From Candidatus Binatia bacterium (GTDB taxonomy: Bacteria > Desulfobacterota > Binatia > HRBIN30), in the NCBI GenBank assembly GCA_038245295.1, contig JBBRSP010000007.1, forward strand, positions 155,185 through 219,184: DNA of 64,000 nucleotides, written 5' to 3'. Below are positions 5,626-59,645 of this stretch, piece by piece. The notes beneath the pieces are model-generated. The model saw only the letters and a list, made by a program, of their open reading frames with translations. It had not been told where the DNA came from and did not search any database. Positions within the stretch are counted from its first letter, which is position 1. Each line of letters opens with the position of its first letter. The position numbers were made by a program, and so were the translations under genes.

Positions 5626-5730
5626 CCTCCTCGAAGATGCTGCAACGTGTCACGCCGTGGCGCCATCGGGAAGGTCCCAGGCAACGCAGCGTTGCTACAG
5701 ATGTGGAGCGGGACATGGGATTGTTTGGCA

Positions 5731-5775
5731 ATTTTGAAATGTGGCCATTTTCCATTTGGCTATTTCGTCTAGCGA
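5731..5775. repeat. Octamer tandem-repeat array (GCCATTTT/CCATTTGG units) upstream of phzF
   Basis: tttggcaattttgaaatgtggccattttccatttggctattt. Belongs to the same family as the arrays at 23852, 24021, 46136 and 59611. Confidence 0.5.
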
Positions 5776-7259
5776 ACCTGCACATCATATTGGCCGGAGA
5801 CCGACACCAGAGCTCGATAACCGCCTTCGACCGGCACGAGTGTCACCGCACCACCGCCGGTGACGACGGGTGTGCGTTCGCCGCGCGCTGGCACCCAGAG
5901 ATCGAGTGTACCGACGCCTTCGCCCTGGACGCGCATCGTAGCGGCGTCGCCGTCGCTTTCGAGCGACTTGATGTGTCCCGGCGCGGCACGCGGGAACGGG
6001 CGTGAGACGATGGCCGCCCACTCGGGAACCGGCTCAAGGTCGACGTCACCAGGGCAGCTCGAATACAAGAAATGAGTCAGGTGCGACGGCGGCGTCCCGC
6101 CGGTGGAGCCGATGCTGTGTGGATCGCCGCAGGCCTGTTTCCATTGCCACCAGGCACTGCTGATCAGCAGGCGATCCTCTTCGCGCGCGTAGCGGATCAG
6201 GCGCGCCTTGTTATTGCCGGCATCACCGAACCAGCCGTATTCACCGATCCACAGAGTCGTACCGTAGGTGGCGGCGTCCTCGCTCGCACGTGCGAACAGT
6301 TGCTCGATGGTCAGCGAATTCAGACCCGTGATCGATTCGGCGTAGTTGTGAGGCGCATAGACAATGTTGGTGTCATCGGTGAAGGATGGGTCGGGTGCCG
6401 TCCCCGTTACGGGGAAGAGGGCGATCGGCTCGAAGAAGACGATATGCGAAAAGCCACCGGCCTGACGTTCAGCGGTACGAATCGCGTTGATCGCATGCGC
6501 CGAGTACGAGGCCAGCTTCGGCGTGCTGCCGACCAACGCCGCGCCGAAGTGGGGTTCGTTCAGGAGATCATAGCCGGCCACGGCCGGCTCCTTGGCGAAG
6601 TGGGCCGCCACGAATGCCCAGGCATGAACCAGCTCTGTCTGGATACCATCCCGGTCATCGTAGAAACTGGCGAACGCCGTACTGACAGCAGGAGCAAGCT
6701 CCCGCACACCGGCCGAACGGCAGGTGCTACGGTTGTCGGTGATCGTCGCCCACTCCGGCGCGCCATCCCAACCGATCGCCGGCTCGCGACCCGCGGGACA
6801 GGTGGTACCCGGCGGCGAAGCGATATACTTGCCCCACGCGTCCTGGTGCATGTCGAGCACCACGTACACGCCCGCCGCCTTGGCCGTGGCCACGGCCCGA
6901 CGAACCCTTTCCATATACGCCTCGTCGAACTGTCCACGCTGCGGTTCGACCGACGACCAACTGAGAATCAGGCGCACCCCGTTCAGCCCGAACGAGGCCA
7001 TCCGCGGGAGGTCGCGGTCGTTGATCGGAATCACCTGGGGATAGGCCGGGTTGCCCTGGAAATAGTCGCCCAAGGAGTTGAGGTTCATCGAATGCAGCAG
7101 GACCTGGCGACCCTCGCTGTCGAAGATGCCGGGTGCCGCACCGCGCGTCGCATGCAGCGGCAGTAACTCCGGCAAGGCTGTCGAGGAACCCGACTCACCG
7201 TCGTCGCCGCAAGCGGCTAGAAGCAGCAAGAACACGAATAGCAATGAGCGAATGCGCAT
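5769..7259 (-). CDS. Glycoside hydrolase family 5 (cellulase/endoglycoceramidase-like) lipoprotein
   Basis: Signal peptide with a lipobox (MRIRSLLFVFLLLLAACG). The GH5 signatures VVLDMHQD, LLNEP (acid/base) and WIGEYG (nucleophile) are present. Confidence 0.75.
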   Translation of the reverse strand: MRIRSLLFVFLLLLAACGDDGESGSSTALPELLPLHATRGAAPGIFDSEGRQVLLHSMNLNSLGDYFQGNPAYPQVIPINDRDLPRMASFGLNGVRLILSWSSVEPQRGQFDEAYMERVRRAVATAKAAGVYVVLDMHQDAWGKYIASPPGTTCPAGREPAIGWDGAPEWATITDNRSTCRSAGVRELAPAVSTAFASFYDDRDGIQTELVHAWAFVAAHFAKEPAVAGYDLLNEPHFGAALVGSTPKLASYSAHAINAIRTAERQAGGFSHIVFFEPIALFPVTGTAPDPSFTDDTNIVYAPHNYAESITGLNSLTIEQLFARASEDAATYGTTLWIGEYGWFGDAGNNKARLIRYAREEDRLLISSAWWQWKQACGDPHSIGSTGGTPPSHLTHFLYSSCPGDVDLEPVPEWAAIVSRPFPRAAPGHIKSLESDGDAATMRVQGEGVGTLDLWVPARGERTPVVTGGGAVTLVPVEGGYRALVSVSGQYDVQVR

Positions 7260-7409
7260 GGGGCGATCGAAACACAGAGGACCGGATCGATCAATGCGCC
7301 GTCTTCCCGGCGAAGGCCGCAAGCCCGACGCCGAACCGGTGTCCTGAGCGGCTAGTGCAAGGCGGCGCCGCGTTGACTCACGAACGTCGCCCCACTAGCG
7401 TCGGCACCG

Positions 7410-8582
7410 ATGCCCCAAGACGATTTCATCACCCGCGAACTGGCGGCACAGGCTGCCGCCGGGCTCAGCCGGCGCATGCGGACGGTCGATGGGCCACAGG
7501 ACTCGTGGATCACGGTCGAAGGCAAACGGGCGTTGCTCCTGTGCTCCAACAACTACCTTGGCCTGGCCAACCATCCCGCTCTCATCGAAGCATCGCAACG
7601 CGCCGCCGCCGAATTCGGGGTCGGCTCCGGGGCTTCACGACTGATCTCCGGCTCGATGCGTTTGCATCATGATCTCGAGGAACGCCTGGCCGAGTTAAAA
7701 CGGTGCGAACGCGCCTTGCTCTTCACGTCGGGCTATCAGGCAAACATTGGTGTCATCGGCGCCCTGGTCGGCAACAGCGACGCGGTCTTCAGCGATGAGC
7801 TCAATCACGCCAGCTTGATCGACGGCTGTCGCTTGTCGCGCGCTCGGGTGCACATCTATCCGCACTGCGACACCGAGGCGCTGGCCGAGCAACTGCGAAC
7901 CAGCCAGGCACGTCGCAAACTGATCGTCACGGATTCGATCTTCAGCATGGATGGAGACACGGCCCCGTTGCGGAAAATTTGCACGCTCGCCGAGGAGCAT
8001 GACGCGATGGTGTTGGTCGACGAGGCACACGCCACGGGCTGCATCGGGCCACACGGCGCCGGCGTTGTCGCCGCCGAGGGATTGCAGGATCGGGTCACCG
8101 TTCAAATGAGCACGTTGGGCAAGGCGCTCGGCACCTTCGGCGCGTTTGTGGCGGCGCGGCGGCCGATCATTGAACTGTTGGTGAACAAGGCCCGCAGCTT
8201 TATCTTCACCACAGCACTGCCGCCGCCGATCGTGGCAGCCGCTCACGCCGGGCTCGATCTCGCCATTCGCGATGCGCCGCGGCGGCGACAGCTGGCCGAC
8301 AATGCAGCGTTTCTAACGCAGCAACTGCGCCAGAGCGGACTGCCGGTCGGCGAGGGAGCCTGTCACATCTTGCCCGTTCTGATCGGTGACTCGCGCCGCA
8401 CCATGCAGCTCTCGGAGGCACTGCTCGATTCAGGTGTCTTCGTGCAGGGTATTCGACCACCCACCGTGCCCAACGGCACAGCTCGCCTGCGTATCACCGT
8501 AATGGCGACACACACCACCGAAGACCTGCGCTTTGCCGTCAAAATGTTCCAGCGCGCCTTTGCCGCGGAGCAAGCGGCATGA
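7410..8582 (+). CDS. bioF: 8-amino-7-oxononanoate synthase
   Basis: 390 aa. PLP-dependent class II aminotransferase features and a KAPA synthase-like N-terminus. The 4-nt overlap with bioA indicates operon context. Confidence 0.85.
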   Translation: MPQDDFITRELAAQAAAGLSRRMRTVDGPQDSWITVEGKRALLLCSNNYLGLANHPALIEASQRAAAEFGVGSGASRLISGSMRLHHDLEERLAELKRCERALLFTSGYQANIGVIGALVGNSDAVFSDELNHASLIDGCRLSRARVHIYPHCDTEALAEQLRTSQARRKLIVTDSIFSMDGDTAPLRKICTLAEEHDAMVLVDEAHATGCIGPHGAGVVAAEGLQDRVTVQMSTLGKALGTFGAFVAARRPIIELLVNKARSFIFTTALPPPIVAAAHAGLDLAIRDAPRRRQLADNAAFLTQQLRQSGLPVGEGACHILPVLIGDSRRTMQLSEALLDSGVFVQGIRPPTVPNGTARLRITVMATHTTEDLRFAVKMFQRAFAAEQAA

Positions 8583-12365: not shown

Positions 12366-12878
12366 TCACACAGCCGAAAACGGCAGCGCATAGATCACCG
12401 TGCCGCGCACACCATCGAGCGCTTCCGGAAAAAGCTCGCATACCTTGAATGAATCGGCATTCACCGGGAACGGTGCAGCAATGCCGCGCGGATTGGCCGG
12501 CAAGAATCCGAAGCGGGGGTAGTAGGTCGCGTGGCCCAGCACAACAACGATGGAATGGCCGAGGCGTCTCGCCTCGCTTAGTCCGAAACGCGAAAGCGCC
12601 GATCCAAGGCCGAGATTCTGATGGCTCAGGTGCACGGCGAGCGGCGCCAGCGCCAAGCCAGGAGTCGTCTCCGCGCCATCGGCGATCACGATGCGGGTAA
12701 ACAAGATGTGGGCGACGATTCGGGAATTGTCTTCGGCAACCAGGGAGAGTTGCGGGATGCAGGAGGCATCGCGGCGCAACGCATCGACAAGCTTCGCCTC
12801 GCCTTCGCGGCCGAACGCGCTGGCGACCACGGCATGAACCGCTTCACGGTCCCGCTCTTCTTCCCTTCGCAGATGCAT
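12366..12878 (-). CDS. GNAT family N-acetyltransferase
   Basis: About 170 aa with an acetyl-CoA binding motif region (HQNLGLGSALSRFGLSEARRLG). Start chosen at MHLRREEERDREAVHAV. Confidence 0.7.
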   Translation of the reverse strand: MHLRREEERDREAVHAVVASAFGREGEAKLVDALRRDASCIPQLSLVAEDNSRIVAHILFTRIVIADGAETTPGLALAPLAVHLSHQNLGLGSALSRFGLSEARRLGHSIVVVLGHATYYPRFGFLPANPRGIAAPFPVNADSFKVCELFPEALDGVRGTVIYALPFSAV

Positions 12879-14008: not shown

Positions 14009-15037
14009 ATGCGCGCAGCGATCATGCGAAACCGACAGATGGTGGTCGACACGATCCCCGATCCGGTCCCTCAATCCGGCGAGGTTCTGGTCAAGACGTT
14101 GGCCTGTGGGATTTGTGGCTCCGACCTGCACGCCCTCAAACACGCCGACAAGATGATCGACGCCATGATCGACTCGGGTTTCCCGAGCTCGATGGATCTG
14201 TCGCGCGACCTGGTCATGGGTCACGAGTTCTGCGCCGAGGTGGTCGACTACGGGCCCGACACGGCGCCGACGATCAACCCGGGCGAGCGCGTCGTGTCGA
14301 TGCCCCTCAGTTTCCGCAACGGCACGCCGGCCGCCGTTGGCTACAGCAACGATGTACCCGGAGGCTACGGCGAAGCGATGGTGTTGTCGGCCTACACCAT
14401 CTTGACAGTGCCAAATGGCCTATCGACCGAGCACGCAGCACTCACCGAGCCGATGGCGGTCGGTGTACACGCCGTAAACAAGGGCAACCTGCAGGCGGGT
14501 GATGCGCCGTTGGTCGTCGGCTGCGGGCCGGTTGGCCTGGCGGTGATCGCCGCCCTGAAGATGCGTGGTGCCAGCCCGATCATCGCTGCCGACTACTCTC
14601 CGAAGCGCCGGGCCCTCGCCGAGCGCATGGGTGCTGATGTCGTCATCGATCCGGCTGTGCGGCCGACCTATGAGGCCTACAAGGAGGCGTCTAACCTGGC
14701 GCCGTCCTTGATCTTCGAGTGTGTCGGCGTTGCCGGCATCCTGCAGCAGATTTTGCGCGGTGCCCCGCTGGGAGCGCGCGTTGTTGTCGTCGGTGTCTGC
14801 ATGGACGACGATACGATCCGCCCGATCTACGCCATCAACAAGGAGATCAACCTGCAGTTTGTCCTGGGGTACACACCCGAGGAGTTCGCCAATACCCTGC
14901 GCGCCTTGTCCGAAGGGCAAATCGACGCCACGCCACTGATCACCGGGCAGATTGGCATTGATGGTGTGCCGGAGGCGTTCGAGATGCTCGCCAATCCGGA
15001 GAAACACGCCAAGATTTTGGTTCAGCCCGGACGCTGA
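14009..15037 (+). CDS. Zinc-dependent alcohol/threonine/sorbitol dehydrogenase family (MDR) oxidoreductase
   Basis: Catalytic zinc motif GICGSDLH and a Rossmann motif VVGCGPVGLAVIAAL. GGAGG Shine-Dalgarno 8 nt upstream of the ATG at 14009. Confidence 0.8.
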   Translation: MRAAIMRNRQMVVDTIPDPVPQSGEVLVKTLACGICGSDLHALKHADKMIDAMIDSGFPSSMDLSRDLVMGHEFCAEVVDYGPDTAPTINPGERVVSMPLSFRNGTPAAVGYSNDVPGGYGEAMVLSAYTILTVPNGLSTEHAALTEPMAVGVHAVNKGNLQAGDAPLVVGCGPVGLAVIAALKMRGASPIIAADYSPKRRALAERMGADVVIDPAVRPTYEAYKEASNLAPSLIFECVGVAGILQQILRGAPLGARVVVVGVCMDDDTIRPIYAINKEINLQFVLGYTPEEFANTLRALSEGQIDATPLITGQIGIDGVPEAFEMLANPEKHAKILVQPGR

Positions 15038-22085: not shown

Positions 22086-22195
22086 AACCGTCTCAAGCCG
22101 ACCCGCATAACACGTGACACCAACCTCTCGCGTCGAAGGCAGGACCATTTGGACATAGCCTTCAGGACCTACCACTGCCGCCGTCGCTCGTTGCG

Positions 22196-23851
22196 TTATG
22201 CGACGTCCGGACCCGAGGGGTTGCGGCGGCGGCGAATCTGGCGAATCACGGCGCCGATCTCCTCGCTTCCGAGTGCTCCCTGCACCACCGCATAGGTGGC
22301 GATCCCGGCGGCAACCGCGGCGAAGAGATCTGTTGCCCTGGCGACCAGACCCGGACTCGCTGCCCAGTCGATACAGCCGCTGATGTAGACTACCGGCACA
22401 ACCATCGCGGCCGCTGCAACGGCCGAGCGCCCAAGGGACGGCAGGATCTCACGCAACTCCAGGGTGCCGAGTTTGCCCCGCAGTAACCAGGTCAGCAGGA
22501 TCAGATTCACCGTCGCCGCCAGCGATGTCGACAGCGCCAATCCGGAGTGGCGCAGATCGAAGACCGCCAAATGCTGCGACACCGAAGCAATCATGCCGGC
22601 GACCGGTGAATCGTTGGTGGCAAGAACAGGGCCCATCAAAACGAGACTGAAGATGACATTAGCGACGAAAGCGGCGGCGGCGGTTACCACCGGCGTTCGC
22701 GTGTTCTGCAACGCGTAGAAGGCGGGAATCACCAGACGTACCATCGCGACCGGCCACAATCCTACGGAGAACGCCCCCAGAGCCTGGCCTGTCAGGAGCA
22801 CCTGTGGGTAGCCGAAGGCGCCGCGTTGGAAGAGCACCGAGGTAATCGGCACGGCCAACAGGTAGATGCCTACAGCGGCAGGCATGACGATGAAGTTGGT
22901 GAGACGCATCGCAAAGAGCAGGCTCTGACGCATCTCGTCGAGTGCACCACGCGCCGCTTGCGCCGCGAAGCTCGGCAGGGCTGCGGTTCCCAGGGCAATC
23001 GCAAATACGCCCAGGGGAAACTCGAAGACGCGGTCGGCATACCAGAGATACGACACGCTACCGGTCGGCAACATCGAGGCAAGGATCGTGTCGACCATGA
23101 GGTTGATCTGATAGACGGCGGCGCCGAACACCATCGGCCCCATCAAGCGCATGGTGCGGCGGACCGCGGCGTGTTGAGGATTCCAGATCGGTCGCAGGCG
23201 GACACCGAGTCGGAACATGGCGGGGACCTGCAACAAAAGTTGCGCCACGCCGCCAATCAGAACGCCGGCCGCCAATCCATAGACGGGAGTGCTCAAGCGC
23301 GGCGCGATCAGCAGAATCGAGGCGATCATCGCCAAGTTGAGGAATACCGGCGACAAGGCCGGCGCCGTGAAGTGCCGCAGCGAGTTCAGAATACCGCTAC
23401 ACAGGGCCACCATGCTGACGAGGAAAATGTACGGGAAGCACCAGCGGGTCAGCGAAACAGTGAGCTCATACTTGCCTGCTTCACCGACAAAACCTGGCGC
23501 AAACCAGCTCGTCAGCTGCGGCGAGAAGAGGGTTCCAAGAGCGGTCACGACCGCCAATACCGCGGCCATGAATGTCGCAAGCACAGAGGCCGCCTCGAGG
23601 GCCTCCTCACGCGTGCGGGTGGTCCAATAGTCGGTGAAGACCGGAATGAAGGCCGTGCTCATCGCGCCTTCCGCAACGAAACGTCGCAAGAGATTGGGAA
23701 TACGAAAGGCGACGAAGAAGGCATCGGCGGCAACGCCGGTCCCGAAGTAGTACCCCATCACCGAATCGCGAACCAAGCCGGCGACACGACTCACGAGAGT
23801 AAAGAAGCCAACTGTACCCGCCGCCTTGGCGATCGCGCGGTTCTCACTCAT
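22196..23851 (-). CDS. murJ: Lipid II flippase MurJ (MviN)
   Basis: 552 aa, beginning MSENRAIAKAAGTVGFFTLVSRVAGLVRD, with the FGTGVAADAFFVAFRIPN MurJ signature. Start confirmed as 'cat' at 23849-23851. Confidence 0.85.
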   Translation of the reverse strand: MSENRAIAKAAGTVGFFTLVSRVAGLVRDSVMGYYFGTGVAADAFFVAFRIPNLLRRFVAEGAMSTAFIPVFTDYWTTRTREEALEAASVLATFMAAVLAVVTALGTLFSPQLTSWFAPGFVGEAGKYELTVSLTRWCFPYIFLVSMVALCSGILNSLRHFTAPALSPVFLNLAMIASILLIAPRLSTPVYGLAAGVLIGGVAQLLLQVPAMFRLGVRLRPIWNPQHAAVRRTMRLMGPMVFGAAVYQINLMVDTILASMLPTGSVSYLWYADRVFEFPLGVFAIALGTAALPSFAAQAARGALDEMRQSLLFAMRLTNFIVMPAAVGIYLLAVPITSVLFQRGAFGYPQVLLTGQALGAFSVGLWPVAMVRLVIPAFYALQNTRTPVVTAAAAFVANVIFSLVLMGPVLATNDSPVAGMIASVSQHLAVFDLRHSGLALSTSLAATVNLILLTWLLRGKLGTLELREILPSLGRSAVAAAAMVVPVVYISGCIDWAASPGLVARATDLFAAVAAGIATYAVVQGALGSEEIGAVIRQIRRRRNPSGPDVA

Positions 23852-24070
23852 GGCACTTGGCCATTTTGCCATTTGGCCAAGTGGCCAGGTGGTGGTCTTC
23901 GCGCGCGGCGGGCATTCTGGGTCGGAGCGATTAGCCGTTCGTGAGGCGGAAGACACGGGCCTGCCGAAAACACTCGGTAAGCGCTCTAGGCAAAGGCGTG
24001 CCGCGTTACGGGAACCCCAATCGCCAAATGGCAAATGGCCAAAGGGCCAGGTGGCCAAAGGGCCAAATGG
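23852..24070. repeat. Composite element of two inverted octamer-repeat arrays (23852..23893 GCCATTTG-type; 24021..24070 CAAATGGC-type) flanking a core of about 125 bp. It fills the entire gap between the response-regulator stop and the murJ start.
   Basis: Left array: tggcacttggccattttgccatttggccaagtggccaggtgg. Right array: cgccaaatggcaaatggccaaagggccaggtggccaaagggccaaatggtcag. The arrays are mutually inverted. Confidence 0.55.
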
Positions 24071-27293: not shown

Positions 27294-27988
27294 GCAGTCT
27301 GACAGCTACCGTCCGTGATCAGCCAGCAATGCCGGGGCTCGCCGCATCCGACAGCCCGCGCACAATGGGCCAAGCATTACCGGTTTTTCTCCGCCACGGC
27401 AGCCCGCGTATCTTGCTCGTGCTGTGCGCCGCAAGCCTGATCTGGCGTGCCAAACTCGGGGGCTTCTCGTGGTGGGACATCCTTCCGGTGGTTGGCATTC
27501 TGGCCATCTGGCCGATCCAGGAGTGGATGATTCATGTGTTCATCCTGCACTTCAAACCGATCCGACTCGGGCGCCGGACGATCGACTTTCGCGTGCCGAA
27601 GAAACACCGGGAGCACCACAGCGATCCGTGGAACTACGATATCCTCTTCATCCCGATGCAGTCGTTTCTCTACAGCGTCCCGCTGGTGGCGGCAGTGTGG
27701 TACGCGGTGATGCCGACCACCGAGCTGGCGTGGACCGGGATCACGGCACACCTGCTTCTTTCTCTCCACTACGAGTGGATCCACTACATGGTGCACACGC
27801 GTTACACGCCGACGACGCGCTACTACCAGCGCCTCTGGAAGAACCATCGCCTGCACCACTTCAAGAACGAGAAGTTCTGGTACGGCGTCACCCGCTTGGA
27901 AGGCGACTGGCTGCTGCGCACCCAGCCGGCGGCGAAAGAGGTTCCCCTGTCGCCAACCGCGAAGTCACTGCTTGGCCAGGCGGCCTGA
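27290..27988 (+). CDS. Fatty acid hydroxylase/sterol desaturase superfamily membrane protein
   Basis: Histidine boxes HVFILH, HREHH, HYMVH and HRLHH, plus TM segments. A 4-nt overlap with the GntR gene. Confidence 0.7.
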   Translation: MSSLTATVRDQPAMPGLAASDSPRTMGQALPVFLRHGSPRILLVLCAASLIWRAKLGGFSWWDILPVVGILAIWPIQEWMIHVFILHFKPIRLGRRTIDFRVPKKHREHHSDPWNYDILFIPMQSFLYSVPLVAAVWYAVMPTTELAWTGITAHLLLSLHYEWIHYMVHTRYTPTTRYYQRLWKNHRLHHFKNEKFWYGVTRLEGDWLLRTQPAAKEVPLSPTAKSLLGQAA

Positions 27989-28550
27989 TCAGCGTCGGAT
28001 GTTCGCTTCGATCCACACGGCGAAGGCCTGCATGAACTTCTGCAGGTATGCCGTCGTGCCTTCATTGGTGATCTTTCCGGCGTCGTCGAAGAGCTTCGCC
28101 GCGTTACCGATGTAGGCCTCGGGCTTGCTGCAGCGTCGGCACGTTCAGAAAGACAAGCGACTGTCGCAGCACCTGGTTGGCGCCGAATCCACCCATCGCG
28201 CCAGGCGAGACACTCATCACCGCACCCGGCTTACCGTCCCAGGCGCTCTGGCCGTAAGGCCGCGAGGCAACGTCGATGGCATTTTTCAGCACACCCGGGA
28301 TCGATCGATTGTATTCAGGAGTGACGAACAGAACCGCGTCGGCAGCCTTCACCTGTTGCTTGAAGACTACCCAGGCCGGCGGCGGGGACTCATCGAGGTC
28401 TTGGTTGTACAGTGTCAACTGGTCGATCTCGACGATCTCGAGTTTCAACGAACTCGGCGCCAACTCCGCCAGAGCTTTGGCCATCTTACGGTTGAACGAC
28501 TCCTTGCGGAGGCTGCCGACGATTACGGCAACGTTGCGGGTTGTACTCAT
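27989..28550 (-). pseudogene. NAD(P)H-dependent FMN reductase gene interrupted by a +1 frameshift (extra base near 28121-28127)
   Basis: Frame A (28104..28550) encodes MSTTRNVAVIVGSLRKESFNRKMAKAL...NVPTLQQ, then stops after ARGLHR. Frame B (27989..28126) continues in family-typical sequence SKPEAYIGNAAKLFDDAGKITNEGTTAYLQKFMQAFAVWIEANIRR*. Confidence 0.6.
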
Positions 28551-28595: not shown

Positions 28596-28797
28596 AATCC
28601 TAATGTGACAATCTCATTCTTAACCGCAGAGGCGCAGGGCCGCAGAGAGCGCCGCCAAAAGCGCGTACCGAACGGGCAAAGTAAACATCATTCAAAATGA
28701 ACTGATCAGGTGCGGACACCGCAGGGCATTCACACGCAGGGGCTCTGCGCGCTCTGCCCCTCTGCGGTGAGGTCTTTTGTCACATTGGAGTTAATTG
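28596..28797. repeat. MITE-like imperfect inverted repeat with arms of about 60 nt (TAATGTGACAA...CCGCAGAGG...GCAGAGAGCGCC versus its reverse complement) around a spacer of about 75 nt, in the gap between the FMN-reductase start and the EamA stop
   Basis: Hand alignment of the arms gives about 45 of 60 matches, including exact TGTGACAA/TTGTCACA and CCGCAGAGG/CCTCTGCGG blocks. Confidence 0.4.
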
Positions 28798-28805
28798 CCT
28801 CGCCA

Positions 28806-29666
28806 TCACGCCTCGCGGCGGTTGGCGAGCAACGCCGCACCGGTTAGCGCCAGAAGCATGGAGACCGGCCGCACAAAGCCGAAGCGGCCGCTGCCAATGA
28901 GCGGCTCCCCGAAGACCATGGCGCCGCCGGCGATCGGAACAATGTTGGAAATCACCGAGAAGATTGGCACAACCACCACTCCGCGACCGCCCTGCAACGT
29001 CGCTTGCATGGCAGCAAACCCGGCCGCATTGGTCAGCAGCGTCGTCCACAGGGGCCCGGCCAGAGCCTCCGCAAATGAGTCGACCGCCGATAGCTGCTTG
29101 GCGAACAAACCGGCGAGGCCCAGCAACACACCCGCCGCAACGGCCCAGCCGATCTCGCGGCGCGGGCGGCGGTCACCCCAGACCGCGAATACCGAGATTC
29201 CGATCGATAACACGGAGAAGAAGGTGATCGACAGTCCGGCGGCCGGAGCGGACGCGTGTTCCTCGAGGGTTGATCCAAGCAGCACTAGACCAATGGTTAC
29301 GGCGACAACGCCAACCCATTCGACCCCACGCAACCGCTCGCCCAGCCCGATTACGGCCATCAGCACAAAGACGGCGATGCCACCATCCATCGCCGTGTGG
29401 ACGATGGAGAGCGGCGCCCAACGCAGCGCGAGGATGTAAACACCATAGGCGAATGTCTGCAGCGCAACACCGAAGACCCACCAGCGATTACGCGCAAACG
29501 CGGCCCAGGCTTTGGCGCTCAGCCCGCCTCGGATCGGCGGCAAGCCCTCCGCCTCGCGCTTCATGTAGTACAAGCCCACCGACATCGTGGTGCTCGCGAA
29601 GATCGAGAGAAGAACCGAAAGAAGCATCGTAGAAATGCGAAACGCCCTGTTGCCAGGGCGTTTCAC
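28806..29666 (-). CDS. EamA/DMT-family transporter
   Basis: 286 aa, about 10 TM segments and a duplicated EamA-like architecture. Confidence 0.75.
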   Translation of the reverse strand: MKRPGNRAFRISTMLLSVLLSIFASTTMSVGLYYMKREAEGLPPIRGGLSAKAWAAFARNRWWVFGVALQTFAYGVYILALRWAPLSIVHTAMDGGIAVFVLMAVIGLGERLRGVEWVGVVAVTIGLVLLGSTLEEHASAPAAGLSITFFSVLSIGISVFAVWGDRRPRREIGWAVAAGVLLGLAGLFAKQLSAVDSFAEALAGPLWTTLLTNAAGFAAMQATLQGGRGVVVVPIFSVISNIVPIAGGAMVFGEPLIGSGRFGFVRPVSMLLALTGAALLANRREA

Positions 29667-31848: not shown

Positions 31849-33252
31849 CTACTTCTTCACGTTGATGACCTGGATTGCCGTGAACTCGTTGTAGCCCCAG
31901 CGGCCGTTCTCGTAGCCGATTCCACTCCACTTTGAGCCGCCGAACGGCGTGTACGGCGTGAGGTCCAGATGATGGTTGACCCACCCCGTACCGGAGTCGA
32001 GCTCCTGCACCAGCTCAGCTCCCTTCTGGGGGTCCGATGTCCATACGGAAGCGCCCAGCCCGAAATGTGTGCGATTGGCCTGGGCGACGGCGTCTTCGAC
32101 CTTGCTGTAGCGAATCATCGGCAACGCCATGCCGAACTGCTCCTCGTCGACCAGACGCATGCCTTCTTCCGCCCCACTGACGATCGTCGGCGGGTAAAAA
32201 TACCCCGAGCCCTCGAGACGCACGCCGCCCGAATCGACACTGGCACCGGCCTTACGAGCATCGTCGACCAGCTCCATGACTTTATTGAGCTGCATCGAGT
32301 TGTTCATCGGTCCGAGCTGAGTCTCGGGGTCGCTACCCGGCCCGACCCGCACCGACTTGGCACGCGCCACAAGGGCAGCTCGGATGGGTTCGTAAACGCT
32401 ATCGTGAACATACAAGCGCTTGATCGCCGCGCAGACTTGCCCCGAGTTCTGAAACGCGCCCCAGAACAGACCTTCGGCGACGGCTTCCGGGTTCACATCG
32501 GGCAAGACGATCGCCGGATCATTGCCGCCGAGCTCGAGGGTGACGCGCTTCAAGTCATCCGCCGCGGCGTGCATGATGCGTTTGCCCGTCGCCACACTGC
32601 CGGTGAAGGAGATCTTACGCGGCGTCGGATGGGCCGTCATCAGACCACCCAGCTCGTTGCCGCCCGGCACGATGTTGATAACGCCCTTGGGCAAGACATC
32701 CTTCAAGATGTCGAACAGCAGTAGCGACGACAGCGGCGTGTAGGGCGATGGCTTGGCAACGATGGTGTTGCCGGCGAGCAGGGCCGGAGCCAGCTTCCAA
32801 CACATGAGGATGACCGGGAAGTTCCACGGCGTGATGGCCGCCACGACCCCGAGAGGCTTGCGGATAATGGTGATCTTCTTCTCGCTGTCGTCCTGCAGGA
32901 CTTCCGGTTCGAGCTGCAGCGACGCGAAGTAGCTGAACCAGATCGACGCCCCGAAGACTTCAGCCATCGCCGCCGTGATCGGCTTGCCCTGCTCCAAACT
33001 CAGCAAGGCAGCCAGATCTTGCACACGTCCCTGGATCGCCATGGCGCATTCGCCCAGCTTGGCGCGCCGGAGATTCTCGTCTTTGCGCCATTCGCCGAAC
33101 GCCGCGTTGGCCGCCAGCATGGCTTGGTCGACATGTTCCTTGGTGGCACGAGCGCAGGTCGCAAACGGCTCGCCCTTGGCGGGGTCGATGACCGGATCCT
33201 GCTCCGTCGTGTTTATCAACTCACCATTGATCAACATCGGGTAAGACTGCAT
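31849..33252 (-). CDS. NAD(P)+-dependent aldehyde dehydrogenase
   Basis: 467 aa from MQSYPMLINGE. ALDH signatures ELGGNDP (Glu active site) and QVCAAIKRLYV (Cys active site). AAGGAG Shine-Dalgarno. Start confirmed at 33250-33252. Confidence 0.85.
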   Translation of the reverse strand: MQSYPMLINGELINTTEQDPVIDPAKGEPFATCARATKEHVDQAMLAANAAFGEWRKDENLRRAKLGECAMAIQGRVQDLAALLSLEQGKPITAAMAEVFGASIWFSYFASLQLEPEVLQDDSEKKITIIRKPLGVVAAITPWNFPVILMCWKLAPALLAGNTIVAKPSPYTPLSSLLLFDILKDVLPKGVINIVPGGNELGGLMTAHPTPRKISFTGSVATGKRIMHAAADDLKRVTLELGGNDPAIVLPDVNPEAVAEGLFWGAFQNSGQVCAAIKRLYVHDSVYEPIRAALVARAKSVRVGPGSDPETQLGPMNNSMQLNKVMELVDDARKAGASVDSGGVRLEGSGYFYPPTIVSGAEEGMRLVDEEQFGMALPMIRYSKVEDAVAQANRTHFGLGASVWTSDPQKGAELVQELDSGTGWVNHHLDLTPYTPFGGSKWSGIGYENGRWGYNEFTAIQVINVKK

Positions 33253-33389
33253 GGCTGTCTCCTTCTTTTGCGTGACGGATTCTTCGATAGGGGCGGGCGA
33301 CGACATAGCGGTTCGCGAACGCCGAGGAAACAACCAGCCCGCTCGCGCTGGCGCCGCTGGTTGCGGGTCCATTTGAAACCCGAAGCGGC

Positions 33390-33645
33390 GAGGATGCGTC
33401 ATTCCGGCGAACGAGACTGTCGTAAAACCAAAGTGGAGCAACGTCATCCCGGTGAAAACCGGGATCTCCCCTGCTGGAAGCCTCGAAAGCTGGCGAGATA
33501 CCGGCTTTCGCCGGTATCTCGGAGGTGGTTGCGCAGTTTCAAACGAAGAATCAGAGAAAATCGGCACACTCGAAAGCCGGAATCTCGCCGGCCTTCCCAG
33601 GCTCCACTTGAGGAGATCCCGGCTTTCGCCGGGATGACGTCGCCT
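33390..33645. repeat. Cluster of four or five related GC-rich stem-loops (unit GAGAT[ACT]CCGG(C)-tetraloop-(G)CCGG[GT]ATCTC, with TTTC/GAAA-type loops) in the 573-bp divergent region between the ALDH and thioredoxin-domain genes
   Basis: Copies at 33446-33469, 33495-33520 (perfect 11-bp stem), 33573-33590 and 33612-33639. The outer copies are mutually inverted about 28-mers. Confidence 0.5.
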
Positions 33646-42854: not shown

Positions 42855-45800
42855 GTGGGGCAAATGCAACAACCTCCAAGGCAGCCCACTCAGCTAGCGA
42901 CGCCGACGCCGTTTACGCGCACCAGACCGCGCCGCCTGAGCCTCGCGCCGCCTCGGAACCAGGCTGCGGCGGTCTTCGCATGTGCCCTAGTCCTGCTCGT
43001 CTCCTTGCTCGCTCCATCCGGGGCTCGCGCCGCGGATTGCTGCCAATGCTTCTTCGACATCCCCGTGTGCAGCGTGGCCACGGCGGACTGCGATTCCTCG
43101 ACGGTCGGCTGTTTCCGCGTCGCGAATGCACAGTGCCAGGGTGGCGCCTGCGTGCCGATCCCGTCGGCAACGCCTACCTCGACACAAACGTCCACACCAA
43201 CCCAGACGAACACCGCCACTCCATCCTGTACGCCGAGCGGCACCGCCACGCGCACTCCCACCAACACGCAGACGGCGAGCCCCACGCGCACCTCGACGAG
43301 CACGCCGAGTGCCTCGCCAACATCGAGCCCGACACCGACGACAACCGCGACACGCACGGCAACGTCGACTCCCAGCAGCACTCCCACATCGACGCCAAGC
43401 CCGACGCCGACGGTCACTTCGACCGGCACGCAGACGAACACACCGACCATCACGCGGACGCCGACCATTACGCGCACACCAAGCATCACGCGCACACCGA
43501 CGACAACGCCGGGGCCGATGGACTGTTGTCAATTCAGCCTCATCGGCTCGCTCTTCTGCGGTGCGCCGAATGACGGCTCCTGTCAGGGCGGCCTGCCTGT
43601 TTACGGGACGGGGTGTGTCGACGGCCTATGCACACCATTTACGCCAACGCCGACCCAGACTTCGACGCCGACGGTCACCGCCACGCCGACCGCCACCTCA
43701 ACGCCTACACAAACGGCGACGCAGACGGCCCTTCCGACGTTCACGCCGACCTCCACATCAACCAGCACCGTAACCTTCACGCCGACGAGCACCCCGACGA
43801 TCACCTCGACGGCGACGCCTGGCCCCCAGGATTGCTGCCAGTTTGGATCGCCCGACGCAGCTGCTTGCACGGCGCCGATCGCCGGACTGGGCTGCGGCGC
43901 GGTCGGCGCGGCGGTTTACGGCGCAACTTGCAATGGCGCCTCGGGAGCGTGCATCACGTATACACCGACCCCAACCCCAACGACCTTCCCCACATCGGGT
44001 GCGAACTGCATGGCGCTTGGACCGGTCGCGAACTACTCGCAGCCGCAAAACAAGCGACGCGGTTGCGCCAGCAACTACATGTGTGTCGCCGGCAACGACG
44101 GCGACAGTTCGTACATCTTCTGGTCGGATCCGACGTCGCTGTCAGGACCTATAGAGGACCAATATGTCGTGGACGACCCGCCGCCGCGCACGGAGAAGAT
44201 CACCTCGGTGGCGATCCACGCCGTGTCGCGTGCCGAACAAGGCTTCGGTTCGACGCGGCTCCGGACGTACATCCTGTCGGGAAACGACCTGAAATTTAAC
44301 AGCGCCGTCGAACAGGTCGTCACCAACCAATACGTCGACTATCTCTCCGTGTTCTGCGGCTTCGTGTCGGGCACGTGCAGCCACCCGATCTTCGGGCGAC
44401 CTTGGACATGGGCGGACATCGCCGACCTGCGGATCGGCATCGGGCATCAGGTGACGTTCGGTGATCCCATTCGTACCACCAGCCTCTATGTCGAGGTTTG
44501 TTGGGAAGCGCCAACACCGACACCTACGTTCACGGCGACCCAAACGTCGACTCGGACCTCGACGCCGACTTTCACGGCGACGCCAAGTCCATCATCAACC
44601 TCGACGCCCTCTTCAACGCCGACATCCACGTCGACGTCGACGAGCACACCGACATCAACCCCGACGCCAACCCCAACGGAAACCGACATCCCAACCGTAA
44701 CGCCGACTCTTACTTCAACCCGGACTTCCACGGCGACACTGACAGCGACCATCACTCAGACGCCGACGCCGACGCGCACCGCGACACCAACCTCGTCACC
44801 GTCGCGGACGCCAACCGTGACGGCAACAAGTACACCGAGCGAGACTCCGGTACCGACGCCGACGCCGACGGCCACCGGCCAGCCAAGCTCGACACCGACA
44901 CTGTCTCCCGTGCCGACCCTGTCGCCGACGCCGACACGCTCCGGCACATCGACGCGCTCGGCAACGTCAACGCGCACCTATTCCCCGTCGGCGACGGCTA
45001 CGACAACGCAGACAGCGACGCGCAGCAGCACATCGACGCGCACCGCAACACCGACCGTCACGCTGCCATTGCCATCGGCGACGCTGACACCGGTGCGGCC
45101 AACGAACACGCCGACACGCACCTACAGCTCGACACCGACCATCACCGGCACACGTCCGACGATGACCGCCACACCGATGAGCAAGGTCGACTTCCTCTTC
45201 GGCTCAGGGAGCAACTCGAACGCCGAGTTCTGCCTCGACACCGCCACACCTCTGAACTTCATGAGTGCATCGCGTTCGCTCTTCAGCCTGCGCAGCGAGC
45301 CGGTCGCCGCCGCACGCGATCGTTATCAGGTGATCTACATCCCGCCGGGCCTCAGCACCGACGACTACTTCCAGGTCCAGAAGTTGGTGACCGATGGCGG
45401 CTTCATCGACCAGTTCGTTCGCCTCGGTGGCGTCGCCGTCATCAACGTCGGTGGTGTGATCGGCGACCAGATGATGATCGCCCCGGGTGGCGTCGGCTTC
45501 CTGCGCCAACCGCACCAGTCCGAGATCATCGATCTCCCCGACAGCCCCTATGTCACAGGCCAGGGTATCGGCGGCGAACAACTCGGCATGAGCGACTTTG
45601 ACTCGTGGAACCAGACCGACGAGGGTGTGCTCGATATGCTGCCCCCCGATGCAACGGTTCTGACTCACAACTCCGACGGTCCTTCGCTGGCGCAATACAA
45701 CTGGGGCGACGGGCGCGTCATCGTCAGCACGCTGAGCGTCTGCTGGGCCGGCCGCAACAACACCGATGGCCCGGCGACCCGCAACCTGTTCCGCTACAGC

Positions 45801-46127
45801 AGCTTCTACCAGGGCTCGGCGGCGACGCCGGCGCCGACCGTGACGCCGACCGGCACACCGACGATTACGCCGACTCGCACCATCACAGCGACACGCACGG
45901 CGACGCGCACCCGCACGACAACCCGAACGCCGACAGTGACACCGACGGTCAACTACGTGGTCGGCGATGCCAACATCGATGGCGTGCTCGATTACCTCGA
46001 CCTCGACGCCCTCATCCTGACGATCTACGGCGACGTAGATCCGCCACCGGCGCAGGCGGACGTAAACCTCGACGGCCGTGTCGACTCAGGGGACATCATC
46101 GCGCTGCTCATCTTGCTCGGCGGATGA
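42855..46127 (+). CDS. Secreted modular protein: signal peptide, three Cys-rich DCCQ[CF] modules separated by Pro/Thr-rich linkers, an unassigned central domain, a long PT linker, a possible class-I glutamine-amidotransferase-like (ThuA-like) domain, a further PT linker, and a C-terminal type-I dockerin
   Basis: 1090 aa. Signal RRLSLAPP...[21 protein letters not shown]. Cys-rich modules at about aa 60-105, 235-275 and 330-375. Dockerin [12 protein letters not shown]...[12 protein letters not shown] shows the canonical D-x-N-x-D-G-x-x-D-x-x-D loops. Confidence 0.7.
43141..43525 (+). repeat. Low-complexity ACN-CCN (Thr-Pro-Ser) coding repeats of PT linker 1. Similar tracts occur at about 43630-43830, 44506-45175 and 45820-45950.
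   Basis: Tandem acgccgacg/accccgacg-type units. They generate many spurious overlapping ORFs in all frames. Confidence 0.7.
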
Positions 46128-46135
46128 CAGGGATA

Positions 46136-46190
46136 TCTGGCCATTTGAAGGCGCCCAACTAGCAAGATGGCCAATGGCCAAATGAAATGG
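46136..46190. repeat. Octamer repeat array (ATGGCCAATGGCCAAATGAAATGGCGG) between the dockerin-protein stop and the start codon of the SRPBCC gene
   Basis: Same CAAATGGC family. The array runs into the annotated ATG at 46187. Confidence 0.5.
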
Positions 46191-46618
46191 CGGAAGGACA
46201 CCCCATGGCCCACGTGACGGTAAAAGGTGAGATCAACGTTCCAGTCGAACGCCTATGGGCGGTGGTTGCCGACTTCGGCAGTGTTGGCTGGATCCCCGGT
46301 GGCGAGACGGCCCGCGTCGAAGGCAACGGCCCTGGGATGGTGCGGATGTTCGGTGGTGGCAGCACCGAGATTCGCGAACGTCTGGAGAGTCGTGACGACG
46401 CGATGCGCACCATCGTCTACACCATCCCGCAGGGCCTCCCGATGCCCATCACCGGCTACCGCGCCACGATGGTCGTGCGCCCCGCCGGCGCCGGCAGCGA
46501 GTTGGAATGGTCATGCACCTTCGAACCGGATGGCGTAACCGAGGCCGAAGCCAAGGCTCAAGTCGAGGGGCTCTACGGCATGATGATCGGTTGGATCCGC
46601 GATTTCGTAACTCGCTGA
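46187..46618 (+). CDS. SRPBCC-family protein (polyketide cyclase/dehydrase, Bet v1-like)
   Basis: 143 aa. The motif VERLWAVVADFGSVGWIPG is typical of SRPBCC. The alternative start at 46205 (MAHVTV) is possible. Confidence 0.7.
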   Translation: MAEGHPMAHVTVKGEINVPVERLWAVVADFGSVGWIPGGETARVEGNGPGMVRMFGGGSTEIRERLESRDDAMRTIVYTIPQGLPMPITGYRATMVVRPAGAGSELEWSCTFEPDGVTEAEAKAQVEGLYGMMIGWIRDFVTR

Positions 46619-59537: not shown

Positions 59538-59610
59538 CGGCGCAGGTCCTTAGCACAATCGTGGCGCCCGGCACCGGCGGGAGACGAAAACGACAGCAAC
59601 ATCCACAACG

Positions 59611-59645
59611 ACCAATGGCCCAAATGACCAAACGGCTAAATGCGA
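59611..59645. repeat. Octamer repeat array (CCAATGGCCCAAATGACCAAACGGCTAAATGCG) abutting the MATE-gene stop, upstream of rlmN
   Basis: CAAATGRC family, read directly. Confidence 0.45.

Follow-up and report, generated by a model that had tools for sequence, protein, structure and literature searches.

Tandem octamer arrays next to stop codons in a Candidatus Binatia genome and their relatives in metagenomic contigs

What are the short tandem arrays of an 8-nt unit that recur between genes of a Candidatus Binatia bacterium, and what might they do there? We addressed this question in a 64,000-nt stretch of its genome (GenBank assembly GCA_038245295.1, contig JBBRSP010000007.1, positions 155,185 to 219,184 of the forward strand), hereafter the window. 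An earlier note had described arrays at gene starts and stops in the window, and had read them as sites for a multimeric DNA-binding protein or as a mobile repeat similar to the repetitive extragenic palindromes (REPs). The arrays prove genuine and are far too frequent to be due to chance. With a probability of about one half, we regard them as a dispersed, slippage-prone family of octanucleotide simple sequence repeats (SSRs), with the unit GGCCAAAT or its reverse complement ATTTGGCC, which probably have a structural role in RNA comparable to that of REPs and bacterial interspersed mosaic elements (BIMEs) and do not act as operators.

Octamer arrays in the window

Degenerate head-to-tail arrays with the consensus octamer GGCCAAAT can be read at all the loci reported before. 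We scanned the window with a 24-nt template, (GGCCAAAT)3, in all registers and on both strands, and used first-order Markov shuffles as control. The scan returned four clusters at up to 5 mismatches and five at up to 6, compared with a mean of 0.2 per shuffled window, which upholds the description of a dispersed family. At up to 6 mismatches, four of the five clusters coincide with reported loci and the fifth lies at 27490; this match and another one at 14405 were rejected as arrays because they are lone chance matches within genes. The locus at 46.1 kb surfaces only at up to 7 mismatches, and 3 of the 38 TGGCCA hexamers of the window are packed there into 45 nt. When one mismatch is allowed, TGGCCAWWTGGC has 16 matches in the window, against 1.18 expected. 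Near-perfect CCAAATGG/CCATTTGG octamers are concentrated in about 370 nt (13 out of 43). Outside the arrays, single octamers show no enrichment, and for this reason we rejected a single motif of the uptake-signal type.

Overall, the window contains five arrays in four intergenic regions. All of them lie outside genes; non-coding sequence makes up 15% of the window or less. They are short (3-7 units) and degenerate, and form AT-rich islands within a genome of 62% GC. The spacing between units is exactly 8 nt in 11 of 13 cases, and Tandem Repeats Finder (TRF) independently detects a period of 8 at 23857-23892 and at 24019-24070, with 6.6 copies in the latter array. Two of the loci are identical in a separate Logan assembly of the same sequencing run. 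The recurring palindrome of the arrays is TGGCCA: the palindromic TTGGCCAA cores described earlier reduce to one TTGGCCAA, at 23873, that falls within an array. GGG is confined to an occasional variant unit, AAAGGGCC, while the consensus unit has GG only, and the four or more tracts of at least three G that define a G-quadruplex do not occur in the arrays. CRISPR was rejected, as there are no spacers and the period is 8.

Placement was read from a gene map based on self-trained codon usage, which has 33 intergenic regions of at least 30 nt. Arrays occur in 4 of the 19 co-directional regions and in none of the 9 divergent or 5 convergent ones. Their consistent feature is the upstream stop codon, as in all four regions an array starts 0-10 nt past the stop or overlaps it. 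The earlier statement that arrays sit at gene starts and stops thus holds for the stops (4/4 regions), and for starts it holds at murJ alone. Likewise, the array was said to touch the start codon at four of five loci, and we see this only for 23852-23892, in front of murJ; the CAAATGGC strand was said to be the sense strand at four of five, and we count 3/5 arrays. The names given to the genes proved broadly right by Pfam. The four pairs of neighbours (GH5/PhzF-like, response regulator/MurJ, 1090-aa protein/SRPBCC and MATE/radical-SAM RlmN-like) are functionally unrelated, housekeeping or mixed.

This arrangement departs from several known types of array. Promoter location, helical phasing and a coherent regulon, which characterize operator or iteron arrays, are all missing. 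Phase-variation SSRs are also a poor match, given that the arrays are degenerate, lie outside open reading frames (ORFs) and mostly follow stops. A scan for sigma-70 promoters returned counts at or below shuffle level in the window and no site that coincides with an array; a sigma-54 promoter was rejected because the spacing does not fit. No terminator-like site was reported at any array, and the window counts of such sites were 16/18/16, compared with 15.1/16.7/13.9 in shuffles.

The same unit in metagenomic contigs and other genomes

We scanned metagenome contigs with the pattern GCCAAATGGN{1,2}AAATGGCCAA, which matched at least 120 stretches. The resulting abundances are lower bounds, and all counts given below for the metagenomic family hold among the matches listed. 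Genes on these contigs were called with a crude procedure that retains long ORFs with high GC at third codon positions (GC3), so that stops are exact and starts are not. About 80 of the stretches, with a GC content of 58-71%, contain degenerate (CCAAATGG)n arrays, and a minority of low-GC matches are chance matches in coding sequence. By tblastx, three contigs (L173, L187 and L169; L numbers are our labels for fetched loci) are linked to loci of Phycisphaerales metagenome-assembled genomes (MAGs) at 57-62% identity, and the label Phycisphaerae of the metagenomic set derives from these three contigs alone. The named Phycisphaerales MAGs L031 and L070 carry arrays almost identical to those of the window. 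None of the metagenomic contigs belongs to a close relative of the window organism: where alignments were meaningful, amino-acid identity did not exceed about 50%.

The dominant form, represented by at least 24 non-redundant pairs, consists of a stop codon, an A-rich arm (A-arm) with 3-6 CCAAATGG units, a centre 0-46 nt in length and a T-rich arm (T-arm) with CCATTTGG units. The polarity A-then-T is kept in 24/24 pairs. The elements measure 100-140 nt in total, and the stop of a convergent gene very often comes after the T-arm. The centre is often a GC-rich, terminator-like stem-loop followed by a U-rich stretch, and that of L194 is a textbook terminator (GGGCGGGCGC...GCGCCCGC then TTTTTCAATTT). 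Each of the six elements that we folded gave one long hairpin, and their z-scores range between -6 and -12. The metagenomic elements share with the window arrays the unit GGCCAAAT, the 8-nt period, the pattern of degeneracy and a start at or inside the upstream stop. The window arrays differ from them in their reversed pair polarity, in a unique centre of 130 nt and in the presence of single arms.

Further features recur around these elements. A weakly conserved inner junction, RAAGRC, is found in several of them, most commonly as GAAGGC...GCCTTC. The same sequence occurs in the window at 22128-22162, in the convergent gap between a gene with an SGL domain and murJ, as a hairpin, GAAGGC-N17-GCCTTC, whose loop holds one CCATTTGG unit. 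Octamer runs of the GCAGAG type also flank CCAAATGG elements in L139 and L143. Five contigs (L143, L183, L185, L208 and L229) host a multi-copy gene family with a dockerin-like C-terminus (…CNDIDFNNNGVFPEDQDVIDFFNVLAGGxCP*), whose members bear a near-identical element directly on the stop (CCG TAA ATGGCC…). The duplication of this gene family therefore contributes part of the element copy number in those contigs.

In the metagenomic contigs, arrays were present in 10 of 50 convergent, 13 of 129 tandem and 1 of 43 divergent regions. When an array edge faces the 3' end of a gene, it lies within -8..+9 nt of the stop in 17 of 33 cases, and in many cases the first unit includes the stop, for example CCG TAA ATGGCC. 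Edges that face a 5' end are scattered, and only 1-2 of 15 are that close. On the sense strand of the upstream gene, most of the stop-adjacent arrays (32 out of 40) are of the CCAAAUGG type. The unit spacing is exactly 8 nt in 384 of 424 cases, and within the unit AAA is better conserved (94-96%) than GGCC (76-88%).

These data allow us to evaluate the possibility that the arrays are binding sites for an octamer-reading protein, which would coat them cooperatively and could be nucleoid-associated, similar to gyrase or integration host factor (IHF), a transcription factor, or a protein that acts on RNA. The strict period and the well-kept AAA agree with this possibility, as do arms that hold to the consensus more than to complementarity and the AT-rich islands that arrays form in a GC-rich genome; moreover, the BIMEs of E. 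coli bind gyrase and IHF. However, the arrays lie outside promoter regions both in the window (0/9 divergent) and in the metagenome (1/43), their orientation is mixed and the neighbouring genes are unrelated. In addition, a period of 8 bp mismatches the helical repeat, so that consecutive sites point to different sides of the helix, and no candidate protein was identified. The multimeric DNA-binding site proposed in the earlier note thus finds no support, and an array of transcription-factor operators is the least supported reading; protein binding in the broader sense appears quite unlikely to us.

Near-identical metagenomic loci show how the arrays change. Between L146/L189 and L210 there is one 8-nt indel with 0 mismatches, and between L167 and L222 one 8-nt indel with 6 mismatches. 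It is only in such loci that variation in unit number between relatives was seen, always as single 8-nt indels. At one orthologous position, beside genes that are 62% identical, L173 has CAAATGGC units where L017 has CAGATGGC. The combination of one-unit indels and concerted changes of the unit indicates slippage and concerted evolution. We propose that replication slippage adds or removes single units and in this way would homogenise each array, and that arrays may persist where they are harmless, namely in the untranslated stretch that runs from a stop codon to the next gene's own signals. Such persistence would lead to accumulation in co-directional gaps, elsewhere in convergent ones, and to avoidance of divergent gaps, which bear promoters. 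The GGCCAAAT-type elements of L167 (713-818) and L222 (4773-4886) also adjoin an rlmN-like gene (49% identical to that of the window); this neighbourhood resembles that of the window array between the MATE gene and rlmN (59538-59641), and the resemblance may be a coincidence.

Within Binatia, the octamer family looks lineage-restricted from the sequences compared. The nearest named MurJ homologues come from 'Candidatus Binatia bacterium' MAGs (62-66% identity) and from a 'Deltaproteobacteria bacterium' MAG (70%). Relatives at about 70% MurJ identity (L002-L005 and L247) have no GGCCAAAT arrays and little other period 8, and their synteny is partly different. The closest MurJ homologue (85% identity) is found in the same order of response regulator and murJ, with a gap of 282 nt. 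Exact-protein look-ups matched MurJ and the RlmN-like protein only to contigs of run SRR19962014, while the response regulator and the SRPBCC protein were not on record. One of the relatives, L247, has other short repeats in intergenic positions: heptamer runs of GCCACGA/CGAGCCA (about 5x) and TTCGACA (about 3x), at 12525-12600 and 7726-7748. Different Binatia lineages may therefore carry different short tandem families.

We also scanned a genome collection with the permissive pattern GGCCANNKGGCCANNKGGCCANNKGG and obtained the matches L006-L125. Among these matches, most are perfect octamer microsatellites of other units from many phyla, and none comes from Binatia. The GGCCANNK microsatellites include (GGGCCACC)n, found in Streptomyces, as well as (GGGCCACA)n, (GGGCCAGC)n, (GGGCCAAG)n and (GGGCCAAA)n, and their hosts comprise Streptomyces and other Actinomycetota, Burkholderiales, Pseudomonas, Pantoea and others. 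Because the scan pattern itself selected the GGCCANNK core, the prevalence of this core is not interpretable. Some of the microsatellites extend over hundreds of bases, up to about 1.4 kb of GGCCACCG-type units in L041. Inverted pairs of octamer arrays with other units are present in L020, L024, L026, L068 and L081, from Planctomycetota and Acidobacteriota. They include (TGGGCCAT)n on two contigs of one Acidobacteriota MAG (L068 and L081), two forward/reverse pairs of (GGCCAAGG)n within 2 kb in L026 (Phycisphaeraceae), and (GGCCACAG)n in L024 (Pirellulales). The design of a palindrome with octamer arms is thus not limited to GGCCAAAT. The scan of 2.9 million viral contigs returned one match, by chance.

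Pairing and gene context at individual loci

The unit is nearly self-complementary owing to its TGGCCA core, so that arrays in opposite orientation can pair. In the window this is most evident in the gap between the response regulator (RR) gene and murJ, which hosts two arrays. Array 2b, the best of the window (24022-24070, plus strand), reads CGCCAAAT GGCAAAT GGCCAAAG GGCCAGGT GGCCAAAG GGCCAAAT GG. On the minus strand, which is the sense strand of the genes, it is of the CCAUUUGG type and lies 0 nt from the TGA of the RR gene (24073-24071). Array 2a (23852-23892, minus strand) reads CCACCTGG CCACTTGG CCAAATGG CAAAATGG CCAAGTGCC and is followed by the murJ ATG (23851-23849). It is inverted relative to array 2b and is the sole array of the window that is palindromic by itself, as a small palindrome centred on TTGGCCAA (23873-23880). 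The two arrays are separated by a unique spacer of about 130 nt (23893-24021, minus strand), which is found nowhere else, neither in the window nor in the loci that we fetched.

The whole RR-murJ gap folds into one long irregular hairpin, with a minimum free energy (MFE) of -99 kcal/mol as compared to -80.5 kcal/mol for shuffles (z -3.9). In this fold the first unit past the RR stop pairs with the last unit before the murJ AUG, and the G of the AUG and the next codon are paired as well. Array 2a alone forms a hairpin of -22.7 kcal/mol (z -3.5). A coupling or masking of murJ translation by this hairpin is attractive, and would concern a single locus.

The start of murJ raises the possibility of a translation device, in which the A-rich CCAAAUGG array replaces the Shine-Dalgarno sequence as a landing pad of the S1 or Csp type, or the hairpin couples murJ to the RR stop, or both. 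Indeed, array 2a ends 3-4 nt before the murJ ATG and takes the place of any Shine-Dalgarno sequence, which murJ lacks, and in the relative L247 AGAGGGAG lies upstream of the murJ start, where the window has the array. The pairing of the stop-adjacent with the start-adjacent unit points in the same direction, and an analogous proposal was made for TAACTGA repeats upstream of starts without ribosome-binding site (RBS) (PMC4679880). On the other hand, the device fits a single locus out of the four: at phzF, SRPBCC and the rlmN-like gene a separate Shine-Dalgarno sequence is retained, 15-100 nt away from the array. Furthermore, the metagenomic arrays follow stops and not starts, and the pairing is automatic for inverted copies of one repeat. 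As an explanation of the family, we consider a translation device highly improbable.

The position of the murJ start at 23851 is confirmed by the N-termini of its homologues, all of which read MSENR/MGENR/VSENR, and we could therefore reject the possibility that the repeats are coding. A mechanical ORF call (22196-24058, minus strand) extended the gene by 69 codons through both arrays (…WPFGHLPFG…WPLGQMAKWPSA-MSENR). The arrays are open in six frames and provide an ATG every 8 nt. Octamer arrays can thus inflate ORF calls and mislead the prediction of start codons, as for the SRPBCC gene, whose ORF gains 6 codons from array 3b.

At the third locus, array 3a (46138-46147, plus strand) is a single inverted unit, TGGCCATTTG, 10 nt past the TGA (46125-46127) of the gene at 42855..46127(+), which encodes a large secreted protein of 1090 aa. 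Array 3b (46166-46190, plus strand) has about three units, GATGGCCAAT GGCCAAAT GAAAT GG, and adjoins a GGAAGGA Shine-Dalgarno sequence; its end is 15 nt away from the likely SRPBCC start, the ATG at 46205. The first in-frame ATG of SRPBCC (46187) falls inside array 3b, and the Pfam match begins at residue 7, which is the second ATG. The locus forms a short T-then-A hairpin that is no better than shuffles (z -0.04).

The remaining two loci are single arms. Array 1 (5723-5768, minus strand) has about five degenerate units, which read in gene sense ACGAAATA GCCAAAT GGAAAAT GGCCACAT TTCAAAAT TGCCAAAC. It lies directly 3' of the TAG stop (5771-5769) of the GH5 gene at 5769..7322(-), and the ATG of the phzF-like gene (around 5619) follows about 100 nt downstream of the array, with its own GAGGAGG upstream. 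The fold of this locus is no better than shuffles (z -0.6). Array 4 (59610-59641, plus strand) reads GACCAAT GGCCCAAAT GACCAAAC GGCTAAAT and is of the ATTTGGCC type in gene sense (minus strand). The TAG stop of the MATE gene (59638-59636) lies within its last unit, GGCTAAAT, and the ATG of the rlmN-like gene (59537) is found about 70 nt downstream of the array, with AAGGA upstream of that start.

The window also hosts a second octamer pair. One copy is CCGCAGAG GCGCAGGG CCGCAGAG at 28624-28647, and the inverted copy is GGCTCTGCG CGCTCTGC CCCTCTGCGG at 28742-28767. The two copies are about 95 nt apart, between the co-directional minus-strand genes 28806..29666 and 28104..28550, and form a hairpin that spans the gap (RNA z -3.5), with the same architecture as at RR-murJ.

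According to the structural RNA role that we favour, paired arrays would yield long hairpins in transcripts or DNA prone to form cruciforms. In the window these would be the hairpin that spans the gap from the RR stop to the murJ start and the small hairpin after the 1090-aa gene, and loci 1 and 4 may be single arms left by decay. A hairpin in an intercistronic or 3'-end position could protect or process the upstream message and modulate access to the downstream start. We infer on these grounds that the arrays may affect RNA stability, termination or translation.

Several observations weigh against this reading. The folds of loci 1 and 3 do not exceed shuffles, and some of the loci are single-armed. 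The arms of the 24 metagenomic pairs are 65-87% complementary, and their deviations from the consensus are mostly uncompensated, which suggests that each arm is held to the consensus and not to its partner. A test for compensatory changes in the same pairs therefore did not demonstrate selection for the hairpin, and the pattern of the arms agrees with selection for pairing no better than with homogenisation or protein recognition. Furthermore, the polarity of the pairs is opposite in the two sets, being T-arm then A-arm in 3/3 window pairs and A-then-T in all 24 metagenomic ones. In the window pairs the U-rich arm is 5' and the A-rich arm is 3', which is not the form of an intrinsic terminator. 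The sense orientation differs as well: ATTTGGCC is found in sense in 3 of 4 stop-adjacent arrays of the window and in 8 of 40 of the metagenome. A function of the metagenomic family need not carry over to the window arrays. Finally, the evidence from the source genome consists of five arrays in 64 kb, and the DNA of relatives that was compared for arrays reached only about 70% MurJ identity.

Some of these observations are expected if the arrays are a pure by-product, that is, neutral or selfish debris similar to microsatellites, which slippage generates and which is tolerated just where selection is weakest, with hairpins that arise by accident from a near-palindromic unit and no effect on expression. 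The one-unit indels between otherwise identical loci, the uncompensated arms and the degenerate, partly single-armed arrays of the window, with loci 1 and 3 folding like shuffles, all suit this explanation. The same is true for the lack of arrays in relatives at about 70% MurJ identity, and for the perfect octamer arrays of many units that are common in GC-rich genomes of many phyla. Local slippage, however, leaves unexplained why one unit occurs at many loci in two phyla. Other features that argue against debris are array edges that match stop codons within a few nt, the 80% bias in orientation relative to the upstream gene (32/40), the strict polarity of the metagenomic pairs (24/24) and the conservation of an array at an orthologous position beside genes only 62% identical. 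Overall, we regard a pure by-product as rather unlikely.

Mobility and relation to known repeat families

Since REPs and MITEs (miniature inverted-repeat transposable elements) are mobile, we searched for signs that the arrays move as elements. We compared the spacers and intergenic regions by BLAST with the window and with about 240 fetched loci, and only the arrays matched. There is no conserved body of the kind expected of a MITE, no target-site duplications were seen, and the centres of the metagenomic elements are diverse. The tags of REPs, GTAG or CGTC, are absent from the window arrays, which are tandem octamers. A tblastn search with the Y1_Tnp protein of a relative detected no Y1 transposase (REP-associated tyrosine transposase, RAYT) within the 64-kb window, which is a small part of the genome.

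The proposal of a REP-like mobile repeat therefore survives in one of its two parts. Location and shape are indeed REP-like: the arrays are extragenic, lie at gene 3' ends, have stops embedded in their edges and, as inverted pairs, fold into long hairpins. Mobility is not borne out, given the unique spacers, the lack of an element body and of a RAYT in the window, and a change in copy number that amounts to one 8-nt unit.

The possibility that the arrays are remnants of non-autonomous mobile elements, either REPs or REPINs moved by a RAYT or MITEs with terminal inverted repeats built of octamers, can be judged on the same data. Such an origin would agree with inverted pairs around a spacer, with extragenic sites at gene 3' ends whose embedded stops recall those of GTAG REPs, with the occurrence of one unit in two distant phyla and with the recurrence of the weak RAAGRC junction in the metagenomic elements; besides, one relative encodes a Y1 transposase beside murJ. 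It is opposed by the unique and diverse spacers and centres, by the absence of visible target-site duplications, by the variable unit number with single-unit slippage between near-identical loci, by the lack of a Y1 transposase in the window and by the lone chance match in the viral contigs. Moreover, a RAYT would more plausibly serve another family of the window, the REP-like CCGGCTTTCGCCGG repeats (33440-33640). In our judgement, mobile remnants are very unlikely.

The CCGGCTTTCGCCGG repeats are classical REP-like GC hairpins (33440-33645), for example GAGATCCCGGCTTTCGCCGGGATGACG. They form an imperfect inverted repeat of 73 nt over the 5' end of the ORF at 31849..33567 and the adjacent divergent gap. 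At up to 2 mismatches the pattern has 8 matches in the window, where 1.6 would be expected. The relative L002 carries a comparable hairpin, GGATTCCGGCTTCCGCCGGAATGACGG (12540-12570), next to a gene for a Y1 transposase (RAYT-like).

Dispersed tandem repeats of 7-8 nt form a class of their own, of which the short tandemly repeated repetitive (STRR) sequences of cyanobacteria have reportedly been known since 1990. We know of no family in this class with an established function or with an explained spread across hundreds of gene boundaries. The GGCCAAAT arrays fit this class, with a 7-8-nt unit of fixed period at many loci and a non-coding bias between aligned ORFs, as in the STRR, GGGAATC and TAACTGA types, and the octamer family itself is new. 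A full-text literature search for the repeat sequence gave no match. Likewise, Rfam 15 returned 0 matches at the gathering threshold in the window, and only a tRNA in 12 metagenomic loci. As far as could be checked, the family, including the stop-anchored palindromic elements of the metagenome, is undescribed.

The closest parallels are the heptamer families GGGAATC of Xanthomonas and GGGGA(C/T)T of Nostoc, the latter of which overlaps the cyanobacterial STRR (Rehm et al. 2015, PMC4692102). These repeats form 2-26 tandem copies at dispersed non-coding loci, favour the space between aligned ORFs, are under-represented between divergent ORFs and are located no more than 50 bp from a stop or start. 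Their neighbour genes are unrelated, repeat number varies among close relatives, and inverted pairs form stem-loops (PMC4692102). The unit of the window differs in being an octamer with a palindromic TGGCCA core that is not competent for G-quadruplexes. With 3-7 units, the degenerate arrays of the window are short, and the phyla involved are Binatota-like and apparently Phycisphaerae.

A second parallel is provided by the TAACTGA repeats of marine Beggiatoaceae, some Cyanobacteria and Bacteroidetes (MacGregor 2015, PMC4679880). They occur as intergenic sets of 2-6 copies in distant phyla, with no evident mechanism of transfer and with neighbours of mixed function, and many lie few nt upstream of starts in gaps without canonical RBSs (PMC4679880). 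The GGCCAAAT family is similar in that one short unit is common to distant phyla, and array 2a at murJ resembles the TAACTGA placement at a start without RBS. The TAACTGA sets are start-proximal, with 169 direct and 1 inverted (PMC4679880), whereas the GGCCAAAT arrays are mainly stop-proximal and often form inverted pairs.

REPs themselves (GTAG- and CGTC-tagged; Di Nocera et al. 2013, PMC3733652) are extragenic palindromes at gene 3' ends in convergent or co-directional gaps, whose ends often overlap or supply stop codons, and their proposed roles include mRNA stabilisation, termination and supercoiling. They are single hairpins of 20-40 nt with a conserved tetranucleotide tag and a link to RAYTs (PMC3733652). 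The GGCCAAAT arrays share with REPs the 3'-end site and the overlap with stops. They differ from REPs in that their arms are tandem octamers in variable number, the tag is lacking, the window search revealed no RAYT, and change proceeds by slippage of units.

A more specific possibility, which we consider unlikely, is that the arrays represent an undescribed 3'-end or intercistronic RNA element made of tandem octamers, common to Planctomycetota-Phycisphaerae and Binatota, whose action depends on polarity. If this were true, AAAU-type and AUUU-type arms would zip into a hairpin of 40-50 bp that starts from the stop codon. The metagenomic layout, with the arms around a GC hairpin, would terminate or trim transcripts. 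The layout at RR-murJ would instead bridge the gap, juxtapose the stop with a start that lacks a Shine-Dalgarno sequence, and couple translation. The slippage of units would then act as a rheostat of stem length.

For the biology of these repeats, the octamer family extends the class of dispersed short repeats to two further phyla. The metagenomic loci in addition provide an unusually clean anatomy, with stop-anchored arms, biases in polarity and orientation, centres that are often terminator-like and changes of a single unit. This anatomy makes concrete functional tests possible, and these could be done in cultivable Phycisphaerae if they carry the family.

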